From a virus, in the IMG/VR virus record IMGVR_UViG_3300032309_000634, positions 1 through 64,000 of that record: 64,000 nt of DNA. One strand, given 5' to 3'. Shown piece by piece: positions 13,847 through 41,080 of the stretch. The first letter of the stretch is position 1. Each line of letters opens with the position of its first letter. The notes under the pieces are model-generated. The model saw only the letters and a list, made by a program, of their open reading frames with translations, made no database searches and had not been told where the DNA came from. Made by a program: the position numbers and the translations under genes.

Positions 13847-14491
13847 TTAAACCTCTTCCAGGGTTACGGATACATTCCAAAGATCCATGTTGGTACCGCC
13901 ACGCTTTTGAACAGAATATGAGAAATCAGATATATAGACTTCCATAATTTGGCTATACTGATTTAGATGATTAAACTGGTTTTGGTCTTCTGTAAAGTTT
14001 TTATATTTATCATATGATAGAAATATCCAAAAAGGTCCTTTATGGTTTTCATACCAGTCTAGAAGTTCTGCTCCACCTGCACCGCCATCTACTGTAAATT
14101 CTTGAGATGGGCTTTGACCTTTATAGGGGGATATTCCAGTTGTAATTCCAAAATCTGCAACATTGGGATATGCTCTTGATGGTAGATTATCCCATGATGT
14201 AGCAATTGTTATCTTATCTGCAATATGGTATGATCTCATTCTTCCATTAATTGTTCTTTCACGCTTTTCAATACGAATAGGCTTGAACTCAATAGGCTGT
14301 CTATTATGATCTGAGATTATTAAAAACTGGTCTATCTCTGAGGTTGCAGCATCTTCTGGTGCATTAGCCCCTACTTCATATCCAATTGGGACATAAAGAC
14401 CATTTGATAGTGTACCAGCATTGTTAGACCATAGCATTGCCTGTGGTCTTTGATACCTGCGTCTTCCAGATAGGTATGCTGCTGTTGCCAT
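13847..14491 (-). CDS. Distal tail (Dit-like) protein
   Basis: Immediately after the TMP; ends WNVSVTLEEV like tube-fold Dit proteins. Confidence 0.6.
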   Translation of the reverse strand: MATAAYLSGRRRYQRPQAMLWSNNAGTLSNGLYVPIGYEVGANAPEDAATSEIDQFLIISDHNRQPIEFKPIRIEKRERTINGRMRSYHIADKITIATSWDNLPSRAYPNVADFGITTGISPYKGQSPSQEFTVDGGAGGAELLDWYENHKGPFWIFLSYDKYKNFTEDQNQFNHLNQYSQIMEVYISDFSYSVQKRGGTNMDLWNVSVTLEEV

Positions 14492-17400
14492 TATCGTTGT
14501 CCTCTAACTCTTTGTCCATCAATATATTTAATCTTCTGCATTACTGTGCTAGCAATATCATCGGCATTTAAATTATTACCGTTGACATTTACACTTAAAC
14601 TATAATTATACACTGAAGAATCTGGAGACATACCACTATTTATCTTTGATAGATTCTTTACTCCATATGAATCTACTGCTGACTTTTTAATAACAAATTC
14701 TCCTGGGGTAAGCATAGCTGGGATAGTGTCAGTTCCCATAGCGTAACCACCTGAAGCAAATAATTGAGGAATTAGGCCACCAGAACTTGCTGTAATATAT
14801 CTATTCCATTTTGTTCCACCTGGCAAGTTAGGTAACCAAACTGGAACTCCATTAACTGCTAATCCTACTATATTGTTATTATTTAGCAAATTACCAGAAT
14901 ATGGCTGACCATCAACAGTAAAAAATTTTTGATTCGATGGGCCATAAGAACTAATTCCACCAGCCTTATCAACAAGTGCATCTTTACTATTTCCAACTTG
15001 ACCATGATTAGCGTAAAAGTCTTTGTAAGAATTTAGATAGTTAGCATCGTAGTTAGCATCTGCTCCCTTGGCAATGCTTTCCCTATCTCCTGTATATCCA
15101 CTATTAACGGCATCTGCTCTGGCTTCATATAATTGTTTATCGGTCATTGATGAATATTTTTTATATTCTGCTATTCCAGCTGCAATAGCTTCTTGTGCTG
15201 AAAGAAATTCTGTTGCTGCAGCATTAGCTGCATCAACTACTGTAGTAAGTGCTTCTGCAGTTTTGGTAGTTCCAGCAATTAAAGCATCTGAAGTTTTAAC
15301 TGAATAATCAGCATCTAAAGCGATAATACTGGCGTTATATGCTGCTAGATCAGCATCAAGCATAGCTTGATTTGCTGCTAAAGCTGCAGCCAAGGCTGCA
15401 TCAAATGCTGATTCTGCTGCTGCTATTGCGGCATCGGCTGCTGCAGTTGTTGCTGCGTCCGCTGCATCAAGTATTTTTTGAGCAGCGGCTTTTTCTGCTG
15501 CGGTCTTTGCGTCAGCTAGTGCTTTATCTGCTGCTTCTTTTTCTTCTGCTTTCTTTTTAGCAGCTGCAACAAGAGCATCAGCTTCTGCTTGAGCCTTATC
15601 AGATGCAGCTTGAGCATCTGCAATAATTTTATTTGCTGCTGCTGTAGCATCTGCAGTAATTTTATCGGCAGCAGCTTTTGCATCAGCTTCTGATTTAGCT
15701 ACATCTATTTTACTTCCAGAAGCAGTAACAATACTTTGTGCGGTGGTTGTAATTTTAGAGTCTTTTGCAGGGGTTGCAGCATAGGCCCCAATTTTTGTCA
15801 TGATACTTGTCCACTCAGCATTGATTGCTGTTGATGCTGCTAATAGCCCAGCAAAAGCGGTATCTAAATCTTTACGGGATAAATCATAAGCCTTTACCTT
15901 AGCTTCAATAGCAGTCCAAGCTTCTCTAGTTCTTCCAAGAACTTCAATTTCTTTTTCTAGTTTTTCAAGTCTTGCTTCAATGATTTCATTTTCATTATTT
16001 AAAGCAGCAATCATTCTTTCTTTATCTACAATATTATCTTTAGTAATTTTAGCAATTTCAGTTTCATAGGCTTGAACTTGCTCTAAAGCTATAGATCTTG
16101 CTTGTTCAAGAGTATAGATACTATTGGTTTTAGCTTTAATTTGATCCTGAATTGATAATTTTTTAGGATCAGTATCTAAACTATAAATCTTTTGAGAAAG
16201 TTCAAATTGTCTTTGTTTAATCTCTTCTTGTGTAAGAAGACCAAGTTCAATTTTATTTCCAGTTACTGGATCTATAGCAATTCTTGAAGCACTTAAAATT
16301 CCTTCTATATCATCTTTTCTTGATTTCTCTAAAGCTTTTTGTGAATTAGACTGAGCAAGTTCAACATTGCTTCTACGAACATCTTGCATTGCTTTAGCAG
16401 CAGCTGAGATGTCTCCACTTGAAAGTGCAGCAGCTAGTCCTATTCTATTTTCTTCTTGTTTTAAAATTGCATCATTAATATCTTTTATAGTTTCAAGAGC
16501 TTTTGCTTGTTTGTCATACTCTTTAGTTATTAGCTCTGATGCATTGTTGACAACATCTAAGTCATTTGATAGTGCGCTTAATTCATCCTGCAGTTCTTTA
16601 ATTGGTTCGTTAAACCTAACTTCAATTTCACGCTGTAAATCATTAATTTCTTTTTGATATTTATCAACCTTTTGGCTAATGTTAAGGGCAACCGATGCTT
16701 GAATATCATTAATCTTATATTGTAGTTGTTCAATCTGTGCTTCGTATGGTCTAAGTTGTGCTTGTAGTTCTTTGATTTTTGATTCATTAGCTGCAAGTTG
16801 TGCAACATCTTTGGTGCTTCTAGGATCTACACCAGTTCTAATTAGATCTTCCTGTACCGCAAACATTTGGTTAACCATGTCAAGACCAGAAGATGCAACC
16901 TGTCCAAATTCTCCCTTGTTAAAATTAATTTGAATGTCAATCAGTTTCTTAGATTCAATATCTTTTAGGTATTCGGAGATTGCTCCTGTTGAACCTTCAA
17001 TGGCTGCTATATCAATTTTGCCATTTTTAATGTTTTGCGTAAACTGCTTAAGCATTGCTGGGTTTCCAAGAACTGCATCAATTTGCTCTACAGAATATCC
17101 CATAGATTTCATTGCTTTGGCTACATCTGGAGTTTTCGCAAATACATCAAACTCTGCGTTCTTTGTAAGGGTGTCAGTTATAACCTGCATCTTTTCCATT
17201 GCGCTATTAGCTGCAGCAATGTCTTTAATAAACTTCTTCATTTCATCTGACCCTGCAGCACCAAGGGTTCCAGCAGCAATGGCTGAAGCAAGAGATTGAT
17301 CCTGAATTACTTTTAAGGCATCAGTAACTGACATTCCTGCATCTTTAAGAATCTTAAATGCTTCTTGTTGTTTTTTAATATTGTCTATGCTTTGTGCTGC

Positions 17401-20400
17401 CCCCATTTGAGCCATGCCTATATTTACTGAGTTAAAAGCTTCTGATAACCCCATTAACTCTTTAGACAGTCCAACAATATTGCCATCCTTCATTATGAAG
17501 GGAGTTTCTTTATCCTTTGTATTTGGATTTAAATCCATGCCCTGAAAAGCTTTAAACTCTTCTGCTGACATTCCAGATATTGCATCCATTAATACTGGAG
17601 AAAGATTGCCTTGTAACATTATTTGCTGTAAGCCGTTAAACTTTTCAAACATTCTACCAAGACCTTTTTCAGCATCTTTAGTATTTGCAAAAGCAGACAT
17701 TATAGACTTTAACGGATTAAGTGCGTCAAAAGCCTGATCTCTAAATAATTTTAGCTTCATTCCTAAATCATCAAGGAAGGATGTTGCACTCTTTAGTGTG
17801 TCTGCTGCTTCAGCAGCTGCTCTTTTCTTTGCATCATCTGCAGTTGCTGTGCCAAATATTTGTGGGAGAAAGCGATCAATTGCTTTTTTCTCTGCTGCTG
17901 CAATGTTCTTAGGATCTGCTTTAAATGCTTCTTTATCTAAAGCTTTCTGTCTTTCATAAGCTCTCCTACTCTCGGTGCTACCAAAAGCAACGTCTCCAGC
18001 ATATTGTGGATTCTTTTTTTCAAAAGCTGCTTCAAGTTCTCTGTCGATTATCTTATCAAAACTATCGCTTTGAGTTATTGACCCAACTGTAAACATTGCC
18101 TGGAACTGTAAGTTTTTTGGAAGTTTAGAGATTGCGTTCCAGTTGGTTATTGCTGAATCTAGGGTTAGATTTTTTCCTGCTCCACCTGCAGCTTCTTGCA
18201 TTTTAACAAGAGCTTCTAGAGTAATCTTTCCATCAGGAAATTGCTTTTTAAGTGCTGCAATCTCTTTTCCAACTGCTTTAAGTCTTGGAATGTCGGACTT
18301 GTTTGTTTCAAGGTCTATCTTAATTCCAATAAAGTCTGGAATCTTGCCAAGCTCTTCGACTGCAGACATAGTTGCATCTGCATCATCTTTGTTCATTGTT
18401 TTTATTCCAAGAAGTAGTTCTTTTTGATTTTCTTCTTCTGGAATTAGTGTAAGTATTGTAGAAAGTCTTTGTAGGCCTTCAGTTCCTTGAACTTTAACAA
18501 TAGCATTTAAATCTTTTGTAATGTCCCCACCAGTTTTAGTCATTGTAGAAACAAGGGTAGATGCTTCATTTGGAGTTAAAACATCTGAAGTTACTAATGC
18601 AGAGATCTCAAGGGTGACCTTATCATTTCCAATCTTGTCGAGCTGACTCTGTAGATTGTCCGCTTGTATTTTTAATGGAGCATTGTCTTTAAACTTTTCT
18701 TGCATTCCAACTTTATAAGCTTCCATATACTTATCACGTGCTTGCCCACGACCAGAACCAAGTGGGCTTAAAGTTTCCCCTAGTGATCTTTTTGCAACTT
18801 GATCATACCCAGAAGAAGCAGAACCAAGAATGTCTGCTTGATTTTCTCTTAGTGTTTTTAATCCAGAATCCTTTTTAGAAAGTAGATCGGCTATTTGAGA
18901 ATCTATCTCTGCACGTTCTTTTTCTGTTTTTAATGTTTTCTTTTTAATTTCTAAGTTTGCAATTGCTGAATCGTATTGTGAAGATAGTGCATCGATACTT
19001 CCCTGAGATGCACTTAAATTTTGTGCAACAAGACCTTGCATGATTCCCGCTGCTTTTCCTATTGCTGCTTTTTCTTTACCCTTTTGCCAACTACGAATAG
19101 CTGTTTCAATACCGCCAAAAATAACAGTTGATACTGCTGCTCCAACTAGTGCTGCTGGCACACCAAAACCTGTTGCGCCTACCGCTGCAGATCCAGCAGT
19201 ACCTGCAACTCTTGCTGCTTTTGCAACTTTTAGTGCTGTTCCAATTTTTCCTGATCCTCCTGCACGAGCAAGGGCTGCTTCTTGAGAAAGAAGTGAAGCG
19301 GCACCTACGCCACCTTGAACCATTCTTCCTGCTTGAATTCCAGCTCTTGCTGCAAGGAGTCCGCCACCGATTCCACCTACTGCTAGTTGCCCAAACTCTC
19401 CCTTATTAACCCCAACTTGTTGCTTAGTAACTCGGTTTAAATTGTCAAGAGCAGCCTGTTGTAGATTTTTTCCAGTATTTATTAAATCAACTTGAACTTG
19501 TAATGGATTATTAACAAGATTTTCTCCATTAGGTCCAAGTAACTGAATTAGCCTTCCTCTTACGTCTAGCTCTAGTCTTGCATCTTTTAAGTTTCTGGTT
19601 AGTGCGATTGCAATTGATTCAGCTTGGTCATTAGTTAATACGCCCTGGGATACTGCAGTTCCTAATTGATTTACTAAAGAGTCAACTGCTGATCCTGTAC
19701 CCAAGGTTTTTACTGTTGTTTCAAAACTAGACTTTAGGTTTTTACCAAAATCACTGGTTTCTAAAATGTTATTTCCAAATTCAATACTTACTGGAACTAG
19801 GTCAGTATTTCTTCCAGCTCTTTTTGCTTGCTCTACTTGTGTAACAGACATTGTGTTTGTGATCTTACCAAGAGCTTCAAGCTGATTGGTAGTCATAGTC
19901 ATTGCTTCTGCTTGTTTTTGTCCTTCAATTATATTCCGTTTAATTGTTGAAGATTGAATTTTAAATACCGCAGCAAGTGAAAGTGCTGCTGCGCCAGCAA
20001 TTTTTAAAGGTGAATTAAATATTGACATAAACATTGGAATCAAAGATGCCACAGAAATTGCAACCATATTTTTAGAAAGAAGTTGTCCTGCTGCTGAGTC
20101 AGGCTGGGATGCTGCAATACCTTGAGCAACCATAGGAAGCATCATTGCTGCCATGCCAATACCCATGGATTTTTGTGCAGTATTCATTCTATTTGCTTGA
20201 CGCATATTTATGCGTTCTTCAGGAGTCGCAGTTCTTGTTACTCCCTTATCATCTGTTACAGTGTTTGATACATTGCCAAACCCATTAAGCCAGCCACGGA
20301 AACCTCTGGTTTTATCTTTTCCAAAAGACTCTGTTGTTCCAGATACAGCCTTGTCAAGTTTTTCAACCTTTGGGGTAGTTTTTTCAAACTTACTTCCAAG

Positions 20401-23400
20401 CTTATCAATTCTGTCGCCAAGTTTTTTAATTTTTGGTTTGTCAAAGAATTTATCAATAGCACGTGAGACTCTATCTTCTCCTGGTGCAACGGTTGGTGCT
20501 GTTGGCATTGGACCCCAGCCATCTCCCTTATCTCTCCATGATCCTGGATTGCCACCCCAAGGGCTTGGAGTAATATTTGAGTTTTCAAACCCAGGTATCG
20601 TATCACTAATCATTGATTTAATTAATGGCATATACTTTTGAGATTGCTTTGCTGGGATTACTGCTTCTCCTGGTGACAACATTGCTGGAACAATATCTCC
20701 CGCACCTTTTGGTCCAGGGACTGAGAATATACCGTTTGCAAATCCAGCAACTCTTTCAACAGTTATACCTTTAGGGCTAATGTCAGTTATTACAAACTTA
20801 CCGCCAAACATTCTTTCTGATTCTGGAACACCTTTTTGACTATACATATTTTTAAATAATGAATGTACTGGAATTACATCTTGGTTTTTAAAAGATGTTT
20901 TAACTGTAAATGGAATAACGTCTTTTTTAGTTATTGCTTGATCTCTTGTATTTTTTGCAAAACCACTAGCAATGGATTCTTCAGAACTCCAAGCAGATGT
21001 TCTCATATTAAATGGTTTTCCAACAAACTTACTTAATGCATCTCTTTGTTCAGCACCTTTTAGAGTTGTTAAAATTTTATAAATTTCACCAGAAATTTCA
21101 GGTGGCAGGGTTCCTAATTTTTTCTGATAATAGGAATTTCCAGACAATCCTGTTCCTCTAAAGAAAGTTCCAGACTCTTTTGTACGTAAAGATTTAGTTA
21201 AAGAATTATATTTTTTAAGACTAGTTACAGGATAATAACCATCTTTCCACAGTTTTACTAAAGCTTTGCCTAATAATTGTTTTGGTACTCCTGCTTTTAG
21301 AGCATTATCAATTGCTAAATTTGCCTCTTTGTCCTCAGAGTAAGTTCTTAGTGTTTTTATTGTTTTGTCATATTCTTCTTTTTGTTTTGCGCTTAGATCT
21401 TTAATTAAAGTATTTGACGCAAGTCTTCCAGATGGATTAAATACAGTTTTTGCTTTAGGAGATGCAATGGGTTTAGCTGTTAGTGGTATTCTACCAGCCA
21501 TGTATCCTGGAACGTCACCAGAAATCATTGATTGAATTAATGGTCTATACTTTGCAGACTGTTTAGCAGGAATAACTGCTTCTCCAGGAGATAGCATTGC
21601 AGGAACAATATCTCCTGCTCCCTTTGGACCTGGAACAGAGAATAAACCTTTATTTGCATAAATTAAATTATCTTGTCTAGATGCAGTTCCAAATTTTTCG
21701 TAATAATTTTTTTCAATTCTATAAGGTAGTGCTTTTTCTAGATATTTATCAAAATTTGTAAATGTTTCTGAACTGTTTTTCTTTGCATTTACTTGTGCTA
21801 ACAATGCCATAGCTTGAGCACGTGATTGTGGATGTTCTGCATTTCCATAGTAAACGAGAGCCTGATTCATGGCCTGAGTATCTTCAAACAAATATTCAGG
21901 GAGGTCGTCTTCTGCGTTACGCATTCGTTTTGCTGCTGGAGTTATATGACTTAAAGCTCTAGATGAATAAAACTTTGATACATCTCCAGTTTCTTTAATA
22001 TAACGTTGTAATGGCATGCTTGTGCCGTCAGGTAAAGTAATCTTTTTTGCTGGTTGCGTTATTGTTGCTAATACATCTGCAGGAAGAACTTCTTTTAGGT
22101 AGGCTTCTTCTTCATCAATAAACTGTTGTTGTTCTTTATATATTTTCTTATCTTTATAAAGACTTCTTCTATTTTTGGCGCTAGGTGTTACATTACTGCT
22201 TCTTCCTCTACCGCCTGACCCGAGAACGGAGCCAACCTCTGATGCTGTTACAGTTTTCCCTGATATTTTTCTTATGCCTCTTTCACCAAACATCTTAGCT
22301 TTAAAAGCTTCTAGGATTTGCTCATCATTTAATCCTTTTGATTTCCAATACATTTCATTTTCAGCAATTTTGTCTTCTACTGCTTTTAAATTTTTTGGTG
22401 TAACGGTAAACTTAATTCCGCCTAAATCAAACTCCGTGTTATCTCCTTGGAATCTTCTATTAATTCTTGATAACAAAGATCTAGAAACACTTGATTCTCC
22501 AGCTGAAAAAATACTCCTGGCTGCCGCTTCTCTTGCGCCTGAAACTCTTATCGCAGTTGCTGATGGACCGAAAGTTGGCATACGTCCAGCCATGTATCCT
22601 GGAACTATTCCGCCCTTAGCAAAACCATTACTTTGTGCCCATTTAGCAAAACCCTCCATGAAGTCTCTATCAGATAAGGATGCACCATGTCCTTTTTGTC
22701 TTGCTCTTAATGCAATTTCATCTTCTATTTTCTTTATTGCTGCAGGAGTTAATGCTTTCTTTGGATTAGCAACTACTGATGAATGAATACCATGAATTTC
22801 TCTCCAGTTGGCATCCCTAGCATCCTCTAAGCGTTTAATCATGTTTTGATAAATACCCTGCTCTTCTTTATTTAACTTAAAGCTTGCTATTGTTGCTCTA
22901 AGTTTTGGAAGAGTGTCATCGATCTCTTGTATCATTCTTGTACGGTATTCTTCTGCAGTCATTCCCCTTGGAATATCAGCTGTTGCTTCAGCAAAGAATC
23001 TCTTTGTATTTGAGCCTTTTACTCCAAGCAAGTTTATACGTGCTTGCTCTTCAATAGATGGCATTTCTTTTGAATATGTTCTAAACCCAGAAGCGGTATC
23101 AAAGACTCCAGCATTTCCTTGATCCACCACATTCTTACCAGATACGTTTGCAATCTGCAGATCTTTATCTCCTCTTACAGTAGAAGCTAAAAGCTGCGAG
23201 AAGTAATCATCTTTAGTAAAGACACCATCTGGTTTTGCAAACTCAGGGTTGTAAGGGGCTTCAGATACAATAATTTTTCTCTTCTTTTGTGGATCAGTTG
23301 GATCAATCATTGTACGAATTGTATGCTCTGGTGCTTTTAGTGGGAAGGCTTTGTTTGTAATAGTAGACATTCTTTCTTCTGCTAAAGCAGCAGTCTCATC

Positions 23401-25809
23401 AACATATGGCTTAACAAATACCTTAGTTCCATCTGGCTTTTGATACAATCCGCCAATTCCTTTAACAGGAAATGAGTGCCCTGTGGTTGCTTCAAGCTGA
23501 ACGCCAAAATCTGTTGGATCCATGTCAGCAAATCGACTTGCTTCAGTTCCTTTTCCAATTGACTCCATTGACAGTCTTGCTTTGCGTTGATCTGTAACAG
23601 CTTTAATAGTTTTTGGCATGCCCAGGAATAGTGGCAGCCTTCCAGCCATATGGCCTGGTAAAGTTCCGTCAATCATCTGTCCAATAAATGGTGCGTACTT
23701 CTTTGCCATATCAGCAGGGATAACGGCTTCTCCAGGAGTTAGAAGTGCTGGGGTAGTATCTTGATTCCCCGTTCCAGGAACACTTGTTACGCCTTTAGCA
23801 AAACGCCTTGGAGGGGTGACTCTAGCAACGCTTGGCATAAACATTCCTGGGTTTGTGCTAGCAAAACTAGACATTGCAACTTTAGCTTCTCTATACGTAT
23901 TTGTTAAGGCAACAAGACTTGCTGACTCAAGGACGTATGCTGCAGATAATGCTTTGTGAGATGTTGCAAGGCTGTTAGATATTGCAATATTTTCTAACTC
24001 TTCATTAGTTAAATATTGTGTTCCAAGAGCTGCATCTTTAGATCCATAGGCTAAGCTTTGGAAACCTTTGCGAATAAGGTTAAACATTTTCATTAAGTTA
24101 GCTAAACCATTAGCAACAAGACCAACAGTCATAAGAAGGACTGGACCAATACCAGCAACAGCTGCTATAATAATTGCTACTGCTTTTTTAATTCCTTCAG
24201 GTGCGTTGTTAAATTTATCAAATAATTTAACAAAAAACTCAATTACTGGTGTTAAAACTTTTGCAAACAATTCACCTACTGGAGCAATAGAAGCTTTGAG
24301 TTTTTCAATAGCTGCTTGCATCTTATACATTGGTGAAGATTCTTGCGTTTTTAGTTCTCGCTGAGACAATAAAGCTAATTCTTCTGCTGAGGCAGAAGCC
24401 ATTTTTAAGACTCTACTTGCTTGACTTCCTTCTTTTGTTACGTTATTTAAAAGAGCAGAGATTCTTGCAAACTGGTATTTACCAAAAACTTTTTCAATTG
24501 TTTGTGCTTTTTGCAAATCTGTCAAAGGCTGAAGAGCTTCAGCAAATGATAATACTGTATTTCTTAGGTTACCTTGATTGTCTTGAACAATGCCCTTAAG
24601 GTTAATACCAAGTTTTGCTGCTGATTCAGATGCAGCTTTAGATGGATTAATAAGAGATGCTAGGCCAGACTTAAGTGCGTTAGCACCTTGCTCTGCGCTA
24701 ATTCCACCTTCTTTCATTGCTGTCAAGAAGAAAGCTAAATCTTCTACATTGCCACCAAGTTGTTTAATAATTGGGGCAACTTTTGGAAGTGCGTTAGATA
24801 AATCTTCAAGACTTAAAACGGTTTGGTTTTCAACAGAGTTAAGGAAATCCATTGTTTTTCCAAGTTCCTCAGATCCAATAGAAAAAGCATTTTGCAGTGC
24901 AATAGTTGTTTCTAATGCTTTATCTTGTGCCACGCCACCTAGGACTGCAAGCTTATTTGCCTGCTTTACAACTTCCTCTAATTGCTTTCCAGAATTACCA
25001 GCTGCAGCAGCATCGGCAGCCATCTTAATTGTTTCAGAAACTTTAAGCCCATACTTTGTATATTCTTTTGCAAGATCTCTTATATTTTTAAGAGCTTTAT
25101 CACTTTCGCCTTCAGTAGTAAATATGTCACCATAAACTTTTCTAAATCTTATTGCCTGAGTTTCAATTTCTTTAAATGATTTAATTGCTGATCCTGCAAA
25201 CATAGCCAAGGGAATTGTAAAACCAACCATAAGCTGACGACCAGCCCATTGTGTATTTTTACCAAAGTTAAGAAGTTTTGTAGATCCATCATCAAGTAGT
25301 TTATTAAATATTTGTTGGCGTTGAATCGCCATAGACATATTAGTTAATTGATCATTATAGTTAAGATTTTTAGGAGTAACTCGCATTGAGTTTAATGCGC
25401 CAGAAGCATCTTTACCTAATTGAACATACTGGCTTTGAAGTGCCTTTACTCTTTTTTCAACTAAACTACTAATTGTTGAAAACTCTTTAGCATAATTTTT
25501 GCCAAATGTTTTTGTTGAAGCCATGCCATATCGGTAATACTCACGAAGTGATAATTTGCCAGACTCTAAACTACGAGAAAACTGCTCTGTAGCAGTTGAC
25601 ATCTTGCCCATAGAGGCATTAAACATGCCTGTAGCATTAATGTTATGTAAAAGTGATTTTGAAAAATCGGCTTGGGCTAGTGATGCAGCCTTTGTACCGA
25701 CAATCATGGAACGGTTAAACGCAGATATCTGCTTGTCTAGCCCACGTAGTGCGGACATAGCTTGCGTTGTGTCAATATTAATTAAAATATTGCTGTTTAT
25801 ATCTGCCAT
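14491..25809 (-). CDS. Tape measure protein with internal enzyme-like cassettes
   Basis: 3772 aa after the tail chaperones; TP901-type TMP region (about aa 200-460), hydrophobic segments, long coiled coils, C-terminal GTDTIPAMLTPGEFVI motif; globular inserts at about aa 670-1740. Confidence 0.93.
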   Translation of the reverse strand: MADINSNILINIDTTQAMSALRGLDKQISAFNRSMIVGTKAASLAQADFSKSLLHNINATGMFNASMGKMSTATEQFSRSLESGKLSLREYYRYGMASTKTFGKNYAKEFSTISSLVEKRVKALQSQYVQLGKDASGALNSMRVTPKNLNYNDQLTNMSMAIQRQQIFNKLLDDGSTKLLNFGKNTQWAGRQLMVGFTIPLAMFAGSAIKSFKEIETQAIRFRKVYGDIFTTEGESDKALKNIRDLAKEYTKYGLKVSETIKMAADAAAAGNSGKQLEEVVKQANKLAVLGGVAQDKALETTIALQNAFSIGSEELGKTMDFLNSVENQTVLSLEDLSNALPKVAPIIKQLGGNVEDLAFFLTAMKEGGISAEQGANALKSGLASLINPSKAASESAAKLGINLKGIVQDNQGNLRNTVLSFAEALQPLTDLQKAQTIEKVFGKYQFARISALLNNVTKEGSQASRVLKMASASAEELALLSQRELKTQESSPMYKMQAAIEKLKASIAPVGELFAKVLTPVIEFFVKLFDKFNNAPEGIKKAVAIIIAAVAGIGPVLLMTVGLVANGLANLMKMFNLIRKGFQSLAYGSKDAALGTQYLTNEELENIAISNSLATSHKALSAAYVLESASLVALTNTYREAKVAMSSFASTNPGMFMPSVARVTPPRRFAKGVTSVPGTGNQDTTPALLTPGEAVIPADMAKKYAPFIGQMIDGTLPGHMAGRLPLFLGMPKTIKAVTDQRKARLSMESIGKGTEASRFADMDPTDFGVQLEATTGHSFPVKGIGGLYQKPDGTKVFVKPYVDETAALAEERMSTITNKAFPLKAPEHTIRTMIDPTDPQKKRKIIVSEAPYNPEFAKPDGVFTKDDYFSQLLASTVRGDKDLQIANVSGKNVVDQGNAGVFDTASGFRTYSKEMPSIEEQARINLLGVKGSNTKRFFAEATADIPRGMTAEEYRTRMIQEIDDTLPKLRATIASFKLNKEEQGIYQNMIKRLEDARDANWREIHGIHSSVVANPKKALTPAAIKKIEDEIALRARQKGHGASLSDRDFMEGFAKWAQSNGFAKGGIVPGYMAGRMPTFGPSATAIRVSGAREAAARSIFSAGESSVSRSLLSRINRRFQGDNTEFDLGGIKFTVTPKNLKAVEDKIAENEMYWKSKGLNDEQILEAFKAKMFGERGIRKISGKTVTASEVGSVLGSGGRGRSSNVTPSAKNRRSLYKDKKIYKEQQQFIDEEEAYLKEVLPADVLATITQPAKKITLPDGTSMPLQRYIKETGDVSKFYSSRALSHITPAAKRMRNAEDDLPEYLFEDTQAMNQALVYYGNAEHPQSRAQAMALLAQVNAKKNSSETFTNFDKYLEKALPYRIEKNYYEKFGTASRQDNLIYANKGLFSVPGPKGAGDIVPAMLSPGEAVIPAKQSAKYRPLIQSMISGDVPGYMAGRIPLTAKPIASPKAKTVFNPSGRLASNTLIKDLSAKQKEEYDKTIKTLRTYSEDKEANLAIDNALKAGVPKQLLGKALVKLWKDGYYPVTSLKKYNSLTKSLRTKESGTFFRGTGLSGNSYYQKKLGTLPPEISGEIYKILTTLKGAEQRDALSKFVGKPFNMRTSAWSSEESIASGFAKNTRDQAITKKDVIPFTVKTSFKNQDVIPVHSLFKNMYSQKGVPESERMFGGKFVITDISPKGITVERVAGFANGIFSVPGPKGAGDIVPAMLSPGEAVIPAKQSQKYMPLIKSMISDTIPGFENSNITPSPWGGNPGSWRDKGDGWGPMPTAPTVAPGEDRVSRAIDKFFDKPKIKKLGDRIDKLGSKFEKTTPKVEKLDKAVSGTTESFGKDKTRGFRGWLNGFGNVSNTVTDDKGVTRTATPEERINMRQANRMNTAQKSMGIGMAAMMLPMVAQGIAASQPDSAAGQLLSKNMVAISVASLIPMFMSIFNSPLKIAGAAALSLAAVFKIQSSTIKRNIIEGQKQAEAMTMTTNQLEALGKITNTMSVTQVEQAKRAGRNTDLVPVSIEFGNNILETSDFGKNLKSSFETTVKTLGTGSAVDSLVNQLGTAVSQGVLTNDQAESIAIALTRNLKDARLELDVRGRLIQLLGPNGENLVNNPLQVQVDLINTGKNLQQAALDNLNRVTKQQVGVNKGEFGQLAVGGIGGGLLAARAGIQAGRMVQGGVGAASLLSQEAALARAGGSGKIGTALKVAKAARVAGTAGSAAVGATGFGVPAALVGAAVSTVIFGGIETAIRSWQKGKEKAAIGKAAGIMQGLVAQNLSASQGSIDALSSQYDSAIANLEIKKKTLKTEKERAEIDSQIADLLSKKDSGLKTLRENQADILGSASSGYDQVAKRSLGETLSPLGSGRGQARDKYMEAYKVGMQEKFKDNAPLKIQADNLQSQLDKIGNDKVTLEISALVTSDVLTPNEASTLVSTMTKTGGDITKDLNAIVKVQGTEGLQRLSTILTLIPEEENQKELLLGIKTMNKDDADATMSAVEELGKIPDFIGIKIDLETNKSDIPRLKAVGKEIAALKKQFPDGKITLEALVKMQEAAGGAGKNLTLDSAITNWNAISKLPKNLQFQAMFTVGSITQSDSFDKIIDRELEAAFEKKNPQYAGDVAFGSTESRRAYERQKALDKEAFKADPKNIAAAEKKAIDRFLPQIFGTATADDAKKRAAAEAADTLKSATSFLDDLGMKLKLFRDQAFDALNPLKSIMSAFANTKDAEKGLGRMFEKFNGLQQIMLQGNLSPVLMDAISGMSAEEFKAFQGMDLNPNTKDKETPFIMKDGNIVGLSKELMGLSEAFNSVNIGMAQMGAAQSIDNIKKQQEAFKILKDAGMSVTDALKVIQDQSLASAIAAGTLGAAGSDEMKKFIKDIAAANSAMEKMQVITDTLTKNAEFDVFAKTPDVAKAMKSMGYSVEQIDAVLGNPAMLKQFTQNIKNGKIDIAAIEGSTGAISEYLKDIESKKLIDIQINFNKGEFGQVASSGLDMVNQMFAVQEDLIRTGVDPRSTKDVAQLAANESKIKELQAQLRPYEAQIEQLQYKINDIQASVALNISQKVDKYQKEINDLQREIEVRFNEPIKELQDELSALSNDLDVVNNASELITKEYDKQAKALETIKDINDAILKQEENRIGLAAALSSGDISAAAKAMQDVRRSNVELAQSNSQKALEKSRKDDIEGILSASRIAIDPVTGNKIELGLLTQEEIKQRQFELSQKIYSLDTDPKKLSIQDQIKAKTNSIYTLEQARSIALEQVQAYETEIAKITKDNIVDKERMIAALNNENEIIEARLEKLEKEIEVLGRTREAWTAIEAKVKAYDLSRKDLDTAFAGLLAASTAINAEWTSIMTKIGAYAATPAKDSKITTTAQSIVTASGSKIDVAKSEADAKAAADKITADATAAANKIIADAQAASDKAQAEADALVAAAKKKAEEKEAADKALADAKTAAEKAAAQKILDAADAATTAAADAAIAAAESAFDAALAAALAANQAMLDADLAAYNASIIALDADYSVKTSDALIAGTTKTAEALTTVVDAANAAATEFLSAQEAIAAGIAEYKKYSSMTDKQLYEARADAVNSGYTGDRESIAKGADANYDANYLNSYKDFYANHGQVGNSKDALVDKAGGISSYGPSNQKFFTVDGQPYSGNLLNNNNIVGLAVNGVPVWLPNLPGGTKWNRYITASSGGLIPQLFASGGYAMGTDTIPAMLTPGEFVIKKSAVDSYGVKNLSKINSGMSPDSSVYNYSLSVNVNGNNLNADDIASTVMQKIKYIDGQRVRGQR
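20585..23803 (-). repeat. Repeated ~55-aa linker within the TMP: full copies about 23631-23803, 21484-21660 and 20585-20745; short copy 22577-22627; related C-terminal copy about 14660-14790
   Basis: FSVPGPKGAGDIVPAMLSPGEAVIPAKQS is identical in two copies; VPGTGNQDTTPALLTPGEAVIPA in another; PG(H/Y)MAGR(L/M/I)P occurs three times. Confidence 0.9.
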
Positions 25810-25839: not shown

Positions 25840-26166
25840 TTATTCTTGTGAAGCAAGTGCAAGTAATGCTGAATCATTTAGATTGATTCCTGATGCTGCT
25901 TCAATGATCTTGTACACTGTTGGCAGATCAACTAGATCTTCCAAATCAGCAACAGAGTAGTCTGCTTCTGGCTTGTATTGTTTCATTGCAATGTGTGCAC
26001 AATGGATTAAGATATCCATTGATTTTTCGTTATCTGTTGCAACCGCTGTTAGTCCTTCAAAAGATTTCATAAATGGTCTAAGTAAAGAGATCTTAAGTGG
26101 TTGTGCATCAATTTTTGTTCCGTCAATAAAGACGACTTCATTTTTTTCTTTTGGCGTTGTTGCCAT
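25840..26166 (-). CDS. Tail assembly chaperone, short (G-like) paralogue
   Basis: Immediately before the TMP; start MATTP at 26166 after AGGAGG; homologous to the N-terminal half of 26213-26905. Confidence 0.75.
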   Translation of the reverse strand: MATTPKEKNEVVFIDGTKIDAQPLKISLLRPFMKSFEGLTAVATDNEKSMDILIHCAHIAMKQYKPEADYSVADLEDLVDLPTVYKIIEAASGINLNDSALLALASQE

Positions 26167-26192
26167 ATATAACCTCCTGTGGTTGTATGTCA

Positions 26193-26201
26193 ATTATAGC
26201 A
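26193..26201 (-). promoter_or_regulatory. Extended -10 promoter TGCTATAAT for the short chaperone and TMP
   Basis: Intergenic TGnTATAAT upstream of SD AGGAGG. Confidence 0.6.
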
Positions 26202-26212
26202 TAAAACGCTGT

Positions 26213-26905
26213 TTAGGTTAAGTTTTCGTAATCTAATCCCATCCCAATTCCAAAACCAGCTTTTTGGGCGTTCACTCCTTGAAGTGATAAAACATCATTT
26301 GAATCTGAGGTCTGTCCACCACTAAATACCCTAGCTTTCATATCTTCCCACTCTTTTTGTCCTCTATCTTTTCCGCTTTCTGCGTCAAGATCAACACCTT
26401 GCATAGCAGCAAGAAATTTCTTTTCTGAATAATCTAAATCTCTTACAGCTTCTAAAGTAATCATTAATTCTGACATAGAGAGAGATCTTTCTAGTTCGTC
26501 ATAGTCTTTCCATATGCCCAGCAAAAATACTTCAGACTCTAGTTTTGCTAAATCTAACGTCTCCCAGGTTTCCCCACTTTTTTGTGCTTGATCTTTTACG
26601 GGCTCTTCTAATTTTCTATTTATCTTAATACCAGCAGATATATCTAGTATTTTGTATATAGTTGGCATATCAACATTGTCTTCTACATCTTCTACTGTTT
26701 TAGATATTTCAGGATAATATTGTTTCATGCAAATTCTTACACATTCCACAAGAGTGACTATAGCCTCATCATCATTTTTAGATTTTTTAATATCATCAAA
26801 TGCCACCATAAATTCTCTAAGATACTTAATCTTAAGTGGAGATATTTCTAGCTCTGTTCCATTAAACAAATAAACATTGTCTGTTGTGTATACTTTAGTT
26901 GCCAT
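26213..26905 (-). CDS. Tail assembly chaperone, long (GT-like) form
   Basis: After the tail tube gene; G-like N-terminal half plus a C-terminal helical domain. Confidence 0.75.
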   Translation of the reverse strand: MATKVYTTDNVYLFNGTELEISPLKIKYLREFMVAFDDIKKSKNDDEAIVTLVECVRICMKQYYPEISKTVEDVEDNVDMPTIYKILDISAGIKINRKLEEPVKDQAQKSGETWETLDLAKLESEVFLLGIWKDYDELERSLSMSELMITLEAVRDLDYSEKKFLAAMQGVDLDAESGKDRGQKEWEDMKARVFSGGQTSDSNDVLSLQGVNAQKAGFGIGMGLDYENLT

Positions 26906-39049: not shown

Positions 39050-41080
39050 TTAGTAAAGTTTAATCTCACAAGCATCAGTAGAGCAATAAGACTCTCCTTC
39101 TGCCTCAAGATTTTCAACTCCATCATAGATAGCAGACCAATCAATCTTGGCAATTGTGCCCACATAAGAGTTATATTCTTCTTTTGTTATCTCTGTATAT
39201 GGTTGTTGTGGATAAGTTTTATTCCCCATTGGAAGGAAAGAAACTGCCTTTAGCTGTCCTTCGTACATATTAAGGGCAGGTGCGACAAACTTCTTTTCTG
39301 TTTCTTTATCAAAAGAAAGAGTAACGGAAACGCCATTATCTGACCAGTACTTCTGAGCAGTAGCTGCTAAACCAATCTTTTCAAATAAACTTACTTCCTT
39401 TTCTGATCTCTTGTGACCAGATGCTACTGGGAAATAGACTACAGATGTATTGGCTGATACTACATCGTCTTCAATTTTATATCCCGCTGCCTTAAACAAA
39501 TGAAGCATTGGATCTGTATTTCCAAAACGAATAGATCTTAGGTAGAACTCTCCACCTGGGCCCCAGTGAACTCCTGGAGTTGCTCCAGATAATAACGATA
39601 CAGATCCTGATGGTTTAACTGTTGTTACACGAACAGACTCTCTAACGCATAGCCATTCTGAGTATTTGTGATCATAATGACGGATCTTTTGATACCCTTC
39701 ATCCATCCATTCACGAGTTGTTGGTAATCCATAGGTATCTGCAAAAGATGCAATTCCAGTTAAAGATGTTCCAATACGTCTATTTCTTTGCATGATACCG
39801 TTTGTTTGCTGCCAATGTGTTGGCATTAGTGTAACAGTCTTACCATAAAGATAAGCAAATTTCAATGTCTTGAGGAAGTCCTCCTTGGATTCATGACGAT
39901 TTAAATGCACTTCTACAAGTGTACAAAGTTCGTATGACTCCAATGGCTGCTCCGCACAAGGATTGAATCCCATGATACGGGAATCTTTATAGTCTGGTGC
40001 ATCTGCTAAACGACCATACTCTCTTGCAACATCTAACCAAATAAATCCTGGTTCACCATTATCTGCAATTAAATCAACATAGTCTTCATATTTAGTACCA
40101 ACAGTAGCAGAAATAGAATTATTAGACATCCATGCCCAGCCTGGTTTTTCTGGATCAAATGAATTTCTTTCAGGAAATACTTCTGGATTCTTTAAATTGA
40201 TAAAACCATTGTCTTCTGGTGTTCCTAAAGCTAAAGTAGCAGAACGTCTAACATTTCCAGAAACAACACATGTTCCAATAAGATTAACAATGTCAACAAT
40301 TGCACGACTGTCTAGTACTTCTCCTGCTCTAGAGCCAATGACATTTCGTATGCGTATGTGTAGTTGAATTAATGGTTCTGGACCGCTAGCGACCCCACCA
40401 AAGCCCTTAATGGCTGATCCTAGAGGACGGATAAGGTCATAGTTAAATTCTTGAATAGATTGATTTTGGCGTAGAAATGAATTAATTAAAAGACGAACAG
40501 ATTCAACCCATCCTTCACGAGTATCTGGAATTTCATAGGTAGAAACTGGCTCTGTAGGGGCATAGATAGGCATTTGCTTATCTTGTCCCAAGGTATCAAA
40601 ACCTACTCCAATTCCTAACATTAAAGCATCCATTACCCAAGCAAAAAGGGCACCTGGATCATTACGATCAATGTCACGGGTAGAAACCATTGCACAATTT
40701 TGCAGTGAGGCTGAGTTTCTTTTCTCCATAGTCATTGGAGTTCCGAAAGCCCAAAGACCTCTGCCTGGAGGTGTCCACTTTAATTCAAACATTCTTTGGA
40801 AAGCTTCTTGTGCTGACTTTTGTGATTTATTATCGTTCCAAGGAAGTCTATTATCTTTGGCATGATTTTTTTGAACTGAATACATACCCTCAATTACACG
40901 ACGACAAACTTCATGCCAACGTTCTTTTGTTCCATCTTCTTTGACACGAGAATATGTACGAATAAAAGTAATTTCTCCTAAAGAGTTGCTACCCGCATCT
41001 GAAAATCCAAACGGTGCTGGAGTATTACTATATTTATTTACAAAATCCTCTGATAAGCGAAACGAAAAAACATCTGACAT
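39050..41080 (-). CDS. nrdJ: Class II (B12-dependent) ribonucleotide reductase, RTPR type
   Basis: PPGRGLW, NPCAEQPL..LCTL, TVKPSG, C-terminal CxxxxC. Confidence 0.93.
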   Translation of the reverse strand: MSDVFSFRLSEDFVNKYSNTPAPFGFSDAGSNSLGEITFIRTYSRVKEDGTKERWHEVCRRVIEGMYSVQKNHAKDNRLPWNDNKSQKSAQEAFQRMFELKWTPPGRGLWAFGTPMTMEKRNSASLQNCAMVSTRDIDRNDPGALFAWVMDALMLGIGVGFDTLGQDKQMPIYAPTEPVSTYEIPDTREGWVESVRLLINSFLRQNQSIQEFNYDLIRPLGSAIKGFGGVASGPEPLIQLHIRIRNVIGSRAGEVLDSRAIVDIVNLIGTCVVSGNVRRSATLALGTPEDNGFINLKNPEVFPERNSFDPEKPGWAWMSNNSISATVGTKYEDYVDLIADNGEPGFIWLDVAREYGRLADAPDYKDSRIMGFNPCAEQPLESYELCTLVEVHLNRHESKEDFLKTLKFAYLYGKTVTLMPTHWQQTNGIMQRNRRIGTSLTGIASFADTYGLPTTREWMDEGYQKIRHYDHKYSEWLCVRESVRVTTVKPSGSVSLLSGATPGVHWGPGGEFYLRSIRFGNTDPMLHLFKAAGYKIEDDVVSANTSVVYFPVASGHKRSEKEVSLFEKIGLAATAQKYWSDNGVSVTLSFDKETEKKFVAPALNMYEGQLKAVSFLPMGNKTYPQQPYTEITKEEYNSYVGTIAKIDWSAIYDGVENLEAEGESYCSTDACEIKLY

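Follow-up and report, generated by a model that had tools for sequence, protein, structure and literature searches.

A candidate R-S-ExE ADP-ribosyltransferase cassette within the tape measure protein of an uncultured siphovirus

What is the third of three repeat-bounded cassettes doing inside the tape measure protein (TMP) of an uncultured siphovirus? The cassette lies in the DNA analysed here, hereafter the window, which comprises positions 1 to 64,000 (64,000 nucleotides) of the IMG/VR virus record IMGVR_UViG_3300032309_000634. A preliminary description, made from the letters of the sequence, had read it as an R-S-E type ADP-ribosyltransferase (ART) resembling the injected Alt protein of bacteriophage T4. 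The carrier gene (14491..25809, minus strand, as are all features given below) is an open reading frame of 3772 codons flanked by a siphovirus gene order. Its product matches PF10145 over residues 245-443 (Pfam, E = 5.9e-29), TIGR01760 (NCBIfam, E = 4.3e-34) and eleven tape-measure PHROG families. It has the core domain of TMPs, and its gene has the tail chaperones on one side and the distal tail genes on the other. The window phage found no match among phage records by megablast, and no prophage copy of it was found in species genomes.

The cassette array is preceded by a membrane-type hydrophobic segment (residues 539-572; 24094..24195; Kyte-Doolittle window 19, peak 2.55) and followed by a second hydrophobic segment (residues 1915-1933; 20011..20067). 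Linker 1 (residues 675-730; 23620..23787), which reads ...PALLTPGEAVIP...PGHMAGRLP, leads into cassette 1 (residues 731-1070; 22600..23619), which is kinase-like by motif only. Cassette 2 (residues 1081-1390; 21640..22569) comes next, and neither of these two cassettes has a Pfam match. Linker 2 (residues 1391-1442; 21484..21639), reading FSVPGPKGAGDIVPAMLSPGEAVIPAKQS...PGYMAGRIP, and linker 3 (residues 1689-1745; 20575..20745), a second linker copy, enclose cassette 3. They carry the two copies (21523-21651 and 20608-20736) of a 129-nt direct repeat, 81% identical and 915 nt apart, which encodes linkers of about 50 residues; the 915-nt unit runs over 20608-21522. A further copy of the linker motif (GTDTIPAMLTPGEFVI) lies near the C-terminus of the TMP, at about residues 3690-3725 (14635..14742). 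At least 596 TMP relatives occur in IMG/VR. Relatives of cassette 1 are present in 21 of 72 related TMPs, the denominator being 80 loci minus 8 whose frame leaves the locus before 1800 residues. Counterparts of cassette 2 are present in at least 11 of the 72, a lower bound because the blastp filter required at least 120 aligned residues. Cassette 3 (residues 1443-1688, 246 residues; 20746..21483) is ART-like by motifs, conservation and profile comparisons. It is the only one of the three with a family lead, sits between the two hydrophobic segments and is basic, with 42 Lys and Arg residues against 23 Asp and Glu.

To describe conservation we used an alignment (A2) of 36 sequences, 33 of them 22-28% identical to the window sequence. 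Four motifs stand out. The helix motif LVKLWKDGYY (residues 1517-1526; 21232..21261) takes the form Y-M-x-G-x-Y in the family, with G1524 in 36/36 sequences. The Arg motif TFFRG (residues 1548-1552; 21154..21168) appears as [F/Y/H/W]-R-G, and both R1551 and G1552 are invariant (36/36). The Ser motif FNMRTSAWSS (residues 1600-1609; 20983..21012) aligns to the F-V-S-T-S-L strand of ARTs. Here F1600 and W1607 are found in 36/36 sequences and S1605 and S1608 in 35/36, and the family form F-x-M-R-x-S-x-W-S differs from the S-T-S of ARTs in lacking the Thr and in its spacing. Finally, the ExE motif and the strand that follows (ESERMFGGKF, residues 1663-1672; 20794..20823) align to E-x-E-V-I-L-P-R-G of ARTs; in the family ExE is followed by [F/M]-G-G-K-F-x-I, and E1663, E1665, G1669, G1670 and F1672 are each conserved in 36/36. 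The aromatic-Arg feature with which the first core strand of R-S-E ARTs ends is present, although the alignments that support its placement are weak, and E1663/E1665 supply the E/Q-x-E expected where the fifth strand begins.

The preliminary description had located these motifs correctly: the Arg codon of TFFRG at 21157-21159, TSAWSS (residues 1604-1609) at 20983-21000 and ESE (residues 1663-1665) at 20815-20823, followed by RMFGGKFVITDI, are exactly where it put them. The stretch it assigned to the cassette translates without a stop; its lower bound, 20745, is off by one base, the exact codon range being 20746-21483. A loose pattern of aromatic-R, S/T-S/T and ExE with matched spacing occurs in one place in the real 3772-residue TMP, at residue 1550. 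Shuffling the cassette 5000 times produces the same pattern 90 times, so that the R-S-ExE triad alone is only mildly unusual. Conservation, and not the motif triad alone, is the real signal for cassette 3.

We then consider the matches to known families. P0001 has no match in Pfam, PHROG or NCBIfam, and PF03496 finds none in the window's own genome. When the 36 members were scanned with Pfam at E ≤ 10, six member-family matches emerged, three of them to ARTs (PF03496 twice and DRAT once); the PF03496 matches, in 2 of 36 members, are at E = 0.09, and in a separate scan DRAT matched one of nine members. Six-frame searches of the related virus records gave PF03496 in 2/35 (E = 1.1e-3 and 6e-3 per genome) and DRAT in 2/36 (E = 2.6e-3 and 0.11), and all four matches fall within the ART-like domain. 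Those to PF03496 (positions 17/19-63) cover the helix and Arg motif in two relatives, those to DRAT run from the Ser motif to the stretch before ExE in two relatives, and in one record (G023) the two are consecutive and in order. Two control families, PF00583 and PF01223, matched 0/36 of the same virus records each. PF01129 and PF15962 also gave 0/36, which weighs against an ART. The best PF03496 score among relatives (12.1 bits) lies below the curated cut-off of 23.4. A PHROG scan of the members returned unnamed families only, with phrog_22410 in 4/36. The cassette matched nothing among 50,697 phage records by tblastn, and no solved structure in the PDB matched the cassette or its relatives by sequence; rows for a protein-arginine kinase (E = 0.51) and, for the member L035, for Ero1 (E = 0.4) were at chance level and were rejected.

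For profile comparison we assembled a reference of 25 Alt-like, C3 and SpvB domains. This reference is Alt-heavy: Alt-seeded scans yielded Alt relatives only, a word-indexed C3 search yielded three proteins, and eight records from a search of SpvB against phages were left out. Against it, A2 reached an hhalign score of 24.1 (P = 0.0078) at a probability of only 3-5%. A single alignment pairs R with R, SSWS with STS and ExE with ExE, and 100 column shuffles scored no higher than 19.3. Against the Alt family the probability was 3.4% (P = 0.013), and 0/60 shuffles reached the real score. In the reciprocal direction, the A2 profile found nothing in five genomes with known ARTs (T4, c-st, pSLT and two more phages), and the Alt-heavy HMM found nothing in the six-frame open reading frames of the window and 51 loci (best E about 1).

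Language-model neighbours in the ESM Atlas belong to ART-fold families only (PF03496, Mod, DRAT and DUF4765) for both sequences compared. For P0001 they are PF03496 at ranks 1-3 (0.90), DUF4765 at rank 13 (0.88) and Mod_ADP_RT (0.87), and for L003, a 28%-identical member, they are DUF4765 (0.92), PF03496 (0.89), Mod (0.87) and DRAT (0.87); the recognition values in the Atlas, 2143 and 2136, are below the 2300 mark, a range in which a high score says little, and 4-10 of 100 shuffled proteins attain 0.9. The proposal of an R-S-ExE ART within the TMP finds several independent, individually weak lines of agreement, none of which reaches a curated cut-off, and comparison with ART models gives PF03496 and DRAT matches in relatives, all below threshold. 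The label 'Alt-like' is not established, given hhalign probabilities of 3-5% against the Alt family and the packaging of Alt, a separate protein, in the head and not the tail.

None of the 72 closest TMPs contains the domain. The two closest, L107 and L108, have cores 89-90% identical to that of the window TMP and carry a single linker, no ART-like domain and no counterpart of cassette 2. P0003, with a core 50% identical and its cassettes in a different order, shares the linker-ART-linker unit at 75% identity. The ART-like module is a clean presence/absence cassette, which is new here. Being optional and missing from close relatives, it fits cargo better than structure.

Across a wider range, the nine true matches among 1.84 billion representatives are all internal stretches of proteins of 601-3619 residues (P0005 and P0010, short repeat proteins matched in three to four small stretches, were dropped as spurious). 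All 51 IMG/VR loci with the domain hold it inside open frames of 1256-4190 residues. The domain is found in none of 185,579 species genomes. There is no free-standing form among the matches, three 'near-length' ones being fragments of 127-399 residues. The domain family is confined to giant TMP-like proteins.

From sequence-level evidence of this kind, we consider that cassette 3 is probably a divergent R-S-ExE mono-ADP-ribosyltransferase, carried as optional and exchangeable cargo of the TMP and delivered to the host. Its fold would be ART-like, with R1551, the S1605-W1607-S1608 strand and E1663/E1665 binding NAD+. Judging from C3, iota and Alt-type enzymes, an ExE motif, as opposed to QxE, marks arginine specificity, and the enzyme may accordingly transfer ADP-ribose onto an arginine of a host protein. 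Because a TMP occupies the tube of the tail and is expelled first when a cell is infected, the cassette would enter the host together with the DNA or before it; injection is proposed here by analogy with the behaviour of TMPs in other phages. Cleavage at the PG(Y/H)MAGR-x-P joints found before every cassette might set it free, and in the host it could serve as an early takeover or counter-defence enzyme, as does Alt from the T4 head.

A broader reading, which we put forward tentatively and with considerable doubt, would make the whole TMP a recombination-shuffled effector-injection array. The linkers of about 50 residues, which repeat the motif near the C-terminus of the TMP, would serve as DNA crossovers through which phages swap cargo, and their PG(Y/H)MAGR-x-P joints as protein processing sites cut after Arg, in the way of T5 pb2 after R1127. 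A free arginine-specific ART, a kinase-like enzyme and a third enzyme might then be released into the cytoplasm ahead of the DNA, disarming defences or redirecting host transcription.

Several known systems share part of this arrangement. T4 Alt is likewise encoded by a phage and carried in the virion, and its R, S and ExE motifs follow the order seen in cassette 3. However, Alt is a separate head protein that scores 126.9 bits on PF03496, whereas cassette 3 is internal to a TMP and its relatives score at most 12.1 bits; Alt has S-T-S and a long insert between Ser and ExE, whereas cassette 3 has S-x-W-S and no insert. Among the proteins that Alt modifies after injection is the host RNA polymerase, according to the available part of PMC5512222. 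In MuF-toxin fusions a VIP2-like ART is joined to a structural protein of the virion, and just part of a phage group has the fusion, as excerpts of PMC7302621 and PMC9206674 describe. There the carrier is a head protein and the toxin is C-terminal, while here the carrier is a TMP and the module is internal, repeat-bounded and one of three. The window TMP has no match to the MuF domain, its carrier domain being PF10145. Polyvalent proteins (Iyer et al. 2017; PMC5512222, as excerpted) are also giant; they hold several effectors, commonly ARTs and kinases, and are co-delivered with DNA, while of the three cassettes in the window TMP one has a family lead. Their ARTs belong to the H-Y-D class (Tox-ART-HYD2), in contrast to the R, S and ExE of cassette 3, and the word 'tape' is absent from the main text of that article in its available form.

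Enzymes built into giant TMPs are known as well. P23-45 gp96 is a TMP-fused virion RNA polymerase that acts on the phage genome within infected cells (available text of PMC10770324), and the T5 TMP pb2 is cut after R1127, between a hydrophobic stretch and a muralytic metallopeptidase domain (available text of PMC10038345). The cut after Arg in pb2 may be compared with the ...MAGR-x-P joints of the window TMP. These enzymes are an RNA polymerase and a muralytic peptidase, whereas cassette 3 is a putative NAD-dependent transferase, and the same portions of the two articles mention no repeat-bounded, swappable cassette for P23-45 or T5. Our literature search found no published description of an ART within a TMP.

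Alternatively, cassette 3 could be a TMP-specific globular insert unrelated to ARTs, for instance acting on the envelope or in tail assembly, with R, SxWS and ExE kept for other reasons. Such an insert would explain why nothing exceeds a curated threshold, why hhalign probability stays at 3-5%, why the reciprocal profile search is empty and no PDB sequence matches, and why Atlas recognition is below 2300. The TMP enzymes in the literature searched are muralytic (PMC10038345) or an RNA polymerase (PMC10770324), as far as the accessible text of these articles goes, and a NAD-using one is not described there. We nevertheless regard this reading as unlikely: all the weak signals with a family name attached lead to ART-fold families, with no other consistent candidate, two ART models match adjoining parts of the domain in order while the controls give nil, and the three motifs match those of Alt, C3 and SpvB one after another in an alignment that outscores 100/100 shuffles. 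Less likely again is an ART-like fold that is catalytically silent and has a role in structure, translocation or binding. The model for it is domain D4 of CNFY, to which DUF4765 (PF15962) corresponds as an ART-like domain by structure comparison, and which bound no NAD+ and tolerated mutation of its Glu without effect (PMC7883292, from the accessible portion). DUF4765 is indeed the nearest Atlas family of L003 (0.92), if only the 13th for P0001, and S-x-W-S stands in place of S-T-S. D4 has R, E and H, however (same portion of PMC7883292), whereas cassette 3 keeps the full set of Arg, Ser and Glu-x-Glu, with R and both E in 36/36 at 22-28% overall identity. The PF15962 model itself matches 0/36 records, and an optional cassette absent from close relatives suits cargo more than structure.

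An active ART might also have another role than that of an injected modifier of protein arginines: it could modify nucleic acids or small molecules, or work in the producing cell, for example on proteins of phage or host while virions assemble. The present data indicate no target, and so strongly basic a cassette (42 K+R against 23 D+E) would also suit nucleic-acid binding. Against this stand the ExE, not QxE, of the arginine-specific configuration and the place of the cassette between two hydrophobic segments, which fits delivery. The P23-45 polymerase, a TMP-borne enzyme active in the infected cell (PMC10770324, available text), offers a precedent for delivery, and we think this third alternative the least probable of all.

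If the favoured reading of cassette 3 as a delivered mono-ADP-ribosyltransferase is right, the phage in the window and the relatives L107 and L108 form a natural comparison with and without the cassette. Confirmed activity would widen the known sequence range of R-S-E ARTs by this cassette family. A NAD-dependent, toxin-type transferase in a TMP, as a cassette that is optional and repeat-bounded, would join two themes, virion-delivered ARTs of the phage head and enzymes built into TMPs, and, if the cassette is active, the tail lumen would be a route for exchangeable, host-modifying cargo.

The ART-like domain examined here is the third of three inserts, or cassettes, in the product of a single open frame of 3772 codons at 14491-25809 (-). 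Residues 245-443 of this product are matched by PF10145 (E 5.9e-29), residues 200-556 by TIGR01760 (E 4.3e-34) and the first ~650-790 residues by eleven PHROG tape-measure families; as judged from these matches, the protein is a tail tape measure protein (TMP). Its gene neighbours encode a portal, an S78 prohead protease, a major head protein, a tail-tube-type Ig protein and two tail-chaperone paralogues, the latter followed by the TMP and then by a 1441-aa minor tail protein. The genes around the TMP include no sheath gene, and their order is of siphovirus type. The parent IMG/VR record spans 83,790 bases with an estimated completeness of 77%.

Several other features of the window were noted. 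The two adjacent genes in the tail-chaperone position (25840-26193 and 26213-26905, both (-)) both match phrog_10504, the longer having an additional C-terminal part (phrog_10474); they look like a G/GT pair built as two genes. A class II (B12-dependent) ribonucleotide reductase (39050-41080 (-); PF17975 1e-32, PF21995 9e-15) lies directly beyond the packaging genes. A 690-aa protein at 51165-53237 (-) carries an Mtd_N (major tropism determinant N-terminal) domain (E 7.4e-12); it may belong to the receptor-binding proteins that retroelements diversify.

The cassettes are bounded by copies of a ~50-aa linker (...VPGPKGAGDIVPAMLSPGEAVIPAKQS...) located at TMP residues ~675, ~1391 and ~1689, with a short form at 1071 and one more copy, the fourth, at the TMP C-terminus. 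Cassette 1 (residues 731-1070; 22600-23619 (-)) has the kinase-like motif order GDKDLQIAN...VVDQG and no Pfam match at E<=0.1, no family match was found for cassette 2 (residues 1081-1390; 21640-22569 (-)), and cassette 3 comprises residues 1443-1688 (20746-21483 (-)). Directly before each insert stands PG(Y/H)MAGR(L/M/I)P, encoded by a 30-nt direct repeat at the N-terminal joint of each cassette (21484-21513, 22576-22605 and 23632-23661). The last linker, after which ordinary TMP sequence continues, lacks this repeat and has IPGFENSN instead. The joint encoded by the 30-nt repeat may be a processing site. Cassette 3 is flanked by direct repeats of 129 nt (20608-20736 and 21523-21651) that share 81% identity at a distance of 915 nt, and the entire array lies between hydrophobic segments at residues 539-572 and 1915-1933. 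Close to the TMP C-terminus, at 15215-15692, Ala-rich imperfect coding repeats (families D1 and D2) precede a stretch rich in G, N and Y and the final copy of the linker.

Translation of cassette 3 is free of stops. The preliminary description had placed three motifs of an R-S-E type ART in this stretch, and all of them are present in the translation at the coordinates assigned: TFFRG with its arginine, R1551, at 21157-21159, TSAWSS at 20983-21000 and ESE (ExE) at 20815-20823, the last followed by RMFGGKFVITDI. Because the loose triad pattern also arises in 90 of 5000 shuffled versions of the cassette, its occurrence in one sequence, even as the single site in the whole TMP, is a mere hint.

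Scanning all 1.84 billion representatives returned 11 proteins at E<=0.001, nine of them matching as segments within proteins of 601-3619 aa; the other two, repeat proteins aligned in small pieces, were discarded. A further 15 long proteins came from a profile search, and a scan of IMG/VR identified 51 loci, in all of which the domain lies within an open frame of 1256-4190 codons. No copy was found in 185,579 prokaryote species (one genome per species) and no free-standing form was found, three 'near-length' matches having the appearance of fragments. Thinning the loci to 85% identity left 35, which were aligned with the window to give 36 sequences (alignment A2); 33 of the 35 share 22-28% identity with the window. 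Despite this divergence, R1551, G1552, F1600, W1607, A1614, F1617, E1663, E1665, G1669, G1670 and F1672 are invariant, and S1605, the S1606-equivalent and S1608 are each conserved in 35/36. A near-invariant N-x-D-P-x-H-G-x-L-x-I-G precedes the domain in 32/36 sequences (columns ~17-30; loci L003-L051) and is missing from the window's subfamily (window, L001, L002) and from L010. In one metagenome protein, P0004 (1267 aa), repeats of FAKGGYAGAGDPVTVA.YGIKKL separate several segments, among them an ART-like module at 291-464 and a cassette-1-like one at 844-1190; the TMP core is absent from its known 1267 aa, and P0004 is a fragment or else another type of carrier.

Whether the domain is an ART has evidence on both sides. 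No curated family model reached threshold on any member (Pfam, PHROG and NCBIfam on the window's cassette 3; Pfam and PHROG on the 36), and no PDB sequence was matched by single sequence or by profile. The A2 profile found no match in T4, phage c-st, pSLT and two other phages with bona fide ARTs; our own HMM of 25 Alt-like, C3 and SpvB domains found none in the related loci, and PF01129 and PF15962, run six-frame, each matched 0/36 related virus records. Conversely, four independent lines of evidence, each weak, name the ART fold. Nearest to the window's cassette 3 in the ESM Atlas are PF03496 clusters (ranks 1-3, 0.90), DUF4765 (0.88) and Mod_ADP_RT (0.87), and nearest to L003, a member 28% identical to it, are DUF4765 (0.92), PF03496 (0.89), Mod (0.87) and DRAT (0.87), values to be read with a 'recognition' near 2140 for both queries, below the 2300 mark, and with shuffled proteins reaching 0.9 in 4-10 of 100 cases. 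DUF4765 corresponds to domain D4 in CNF toxins, which is ART-like by crystal structure (PMC7883292). When the 36 members were scanned with Pfam at E<=10, three of six member-family matches were to ART families (PF03496 twice, best 0.09; DRAT once, 0.12) and the remaining three to three different, unrelated families. ART-fold families make up a few dozen of the 24,736 Pfam models.

Run six-frame on whole related virus records, PF03496 matched 2/35 (E 1.1e-3 and 6e-3 per genome) and DRAT 2/36 (E 2.6e-3 and 0.11), all four matches falling inside the ART-like domain; the control families PF00583 and PF01223 matched 0/36 each. PF03496 positions 17/19-63 align with ...ALYNYMQGDYxAINDP...TGTLHRGV, a helix plus the Arg motif, and DRAT positions 201-241 with SSWS...VKNRNAVPAS.IFP; in one record (G023) both matches are present, consecutive and in order. 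Comparison of A2 with the T4 Alt family by hhalign (score 23.9, P 0.013, probability 3.4%) pairs FIMRR-SSWS with FYFRNFVSTSL and ExE with ExE, a score reached by 0/60 column shuffles. With a trimmed 25-sequence reference as template (score 24.1, P 0.0078, probability 5.1%), a single alignment pairs all three motifs, Arg, Ser and ExE, with their counterparts and keeps their order; none of 100 shuffles reached this score (highest 19.3, mean 12.9; reversed template 11.3). The proposal of an R-S-E ART within the TMP is supported in part: the location and the order of R, S and ExE agree with it, and the curated models stay below threshold. Taken together, cassette 3 is a real conserved domain and most likely a divergent R-S-ExE ART: we consider an ART-type fold quite probable and, since R and ExE are invariant, lean towards an active enzyme.

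The cassette varies among close relatives. Using TMP residues 1-660 as the core query, we found at least 596 related IMG/VR stretches and kept 80; in 72 of the 80 the TMP frame is either complete or no shorter than 1800 aa. The ART domain is present in none of these 72 (hmmsearch E<=1e-5), and cassette 1 relatives occur in 21, at varying positions. The closest relatives, L107 and L108, share 89-90% identity with the window in the core, 93-97% in linker 1 and 75-87% in cassette 1, and lack anything that corresponds to cassette 2 or to the ART; a different ~330-aa segment fills the cassette 2 slot, and one linker copy leads directly into the downstream ...DKGDGWG... region. The linker-ART-linker unit is 75% identical to that of P0003/L001, for which core identity is 50%. 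In P0003/L001 the ART lies ahead of a cassette-1-like module, and L002 has yet another order. These absences and differences in order argue that the ART module is cargo, optional and open to exchange, and does not belong to the ruler itself.

Beyond the TMP-cassette architecture, motif conservation and cassette presence/absence and shuffling observed here, we propose a mechanism in which cassette 3 would hold NAD+ through its Arg, its Ser strand and its ExE. The transfer target would be arginine, as the motif is ExE and not QxE. In the C3, iota and Alt literature, this distinction marks an arginine target. Delivery would come about because the TMP exits the tail tube first, and cleavage might occur at the ...MAGR-x-P joints. 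Delivery is made plausible by two TMP precedents: in Thermus phage P23-45, the TMP (5002 residues) contains a virion RNA polymerase that transcribes pre-early genes (PMC10770324), and in T5 the cut in pb2 follows R1127, with a hydrophobic stretch on one side and the muralytic domain on the other (PMC10038345).

The closest known systems are these TMP-borne enzymes, MuF-VIP2 fusions (PMC7302621, PMC9206674), T4 Alt and polyvalent proteins. T4 Alt has R-S-E motifs and is packaged in the head (PMC5512222), whereas the window's ART-like domain sits in the TMP. The ARTs described for polyvalent proteins are of the H-Y-D class, unlike the R-S-ExE of cassette 3, and the main text of that paper does not contain the word 'tape' (PMC5512222). 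Full-text literature searches returned no description of a TMP that contains an ART. ARTs delivered with the virion and TMPs that bear enzymes are already known separately; the domain seen here, most likely a divergent R-S-ExE ART that a siphovirus TMP carries as an optional cassette between repeats, would be a variant on both themes.
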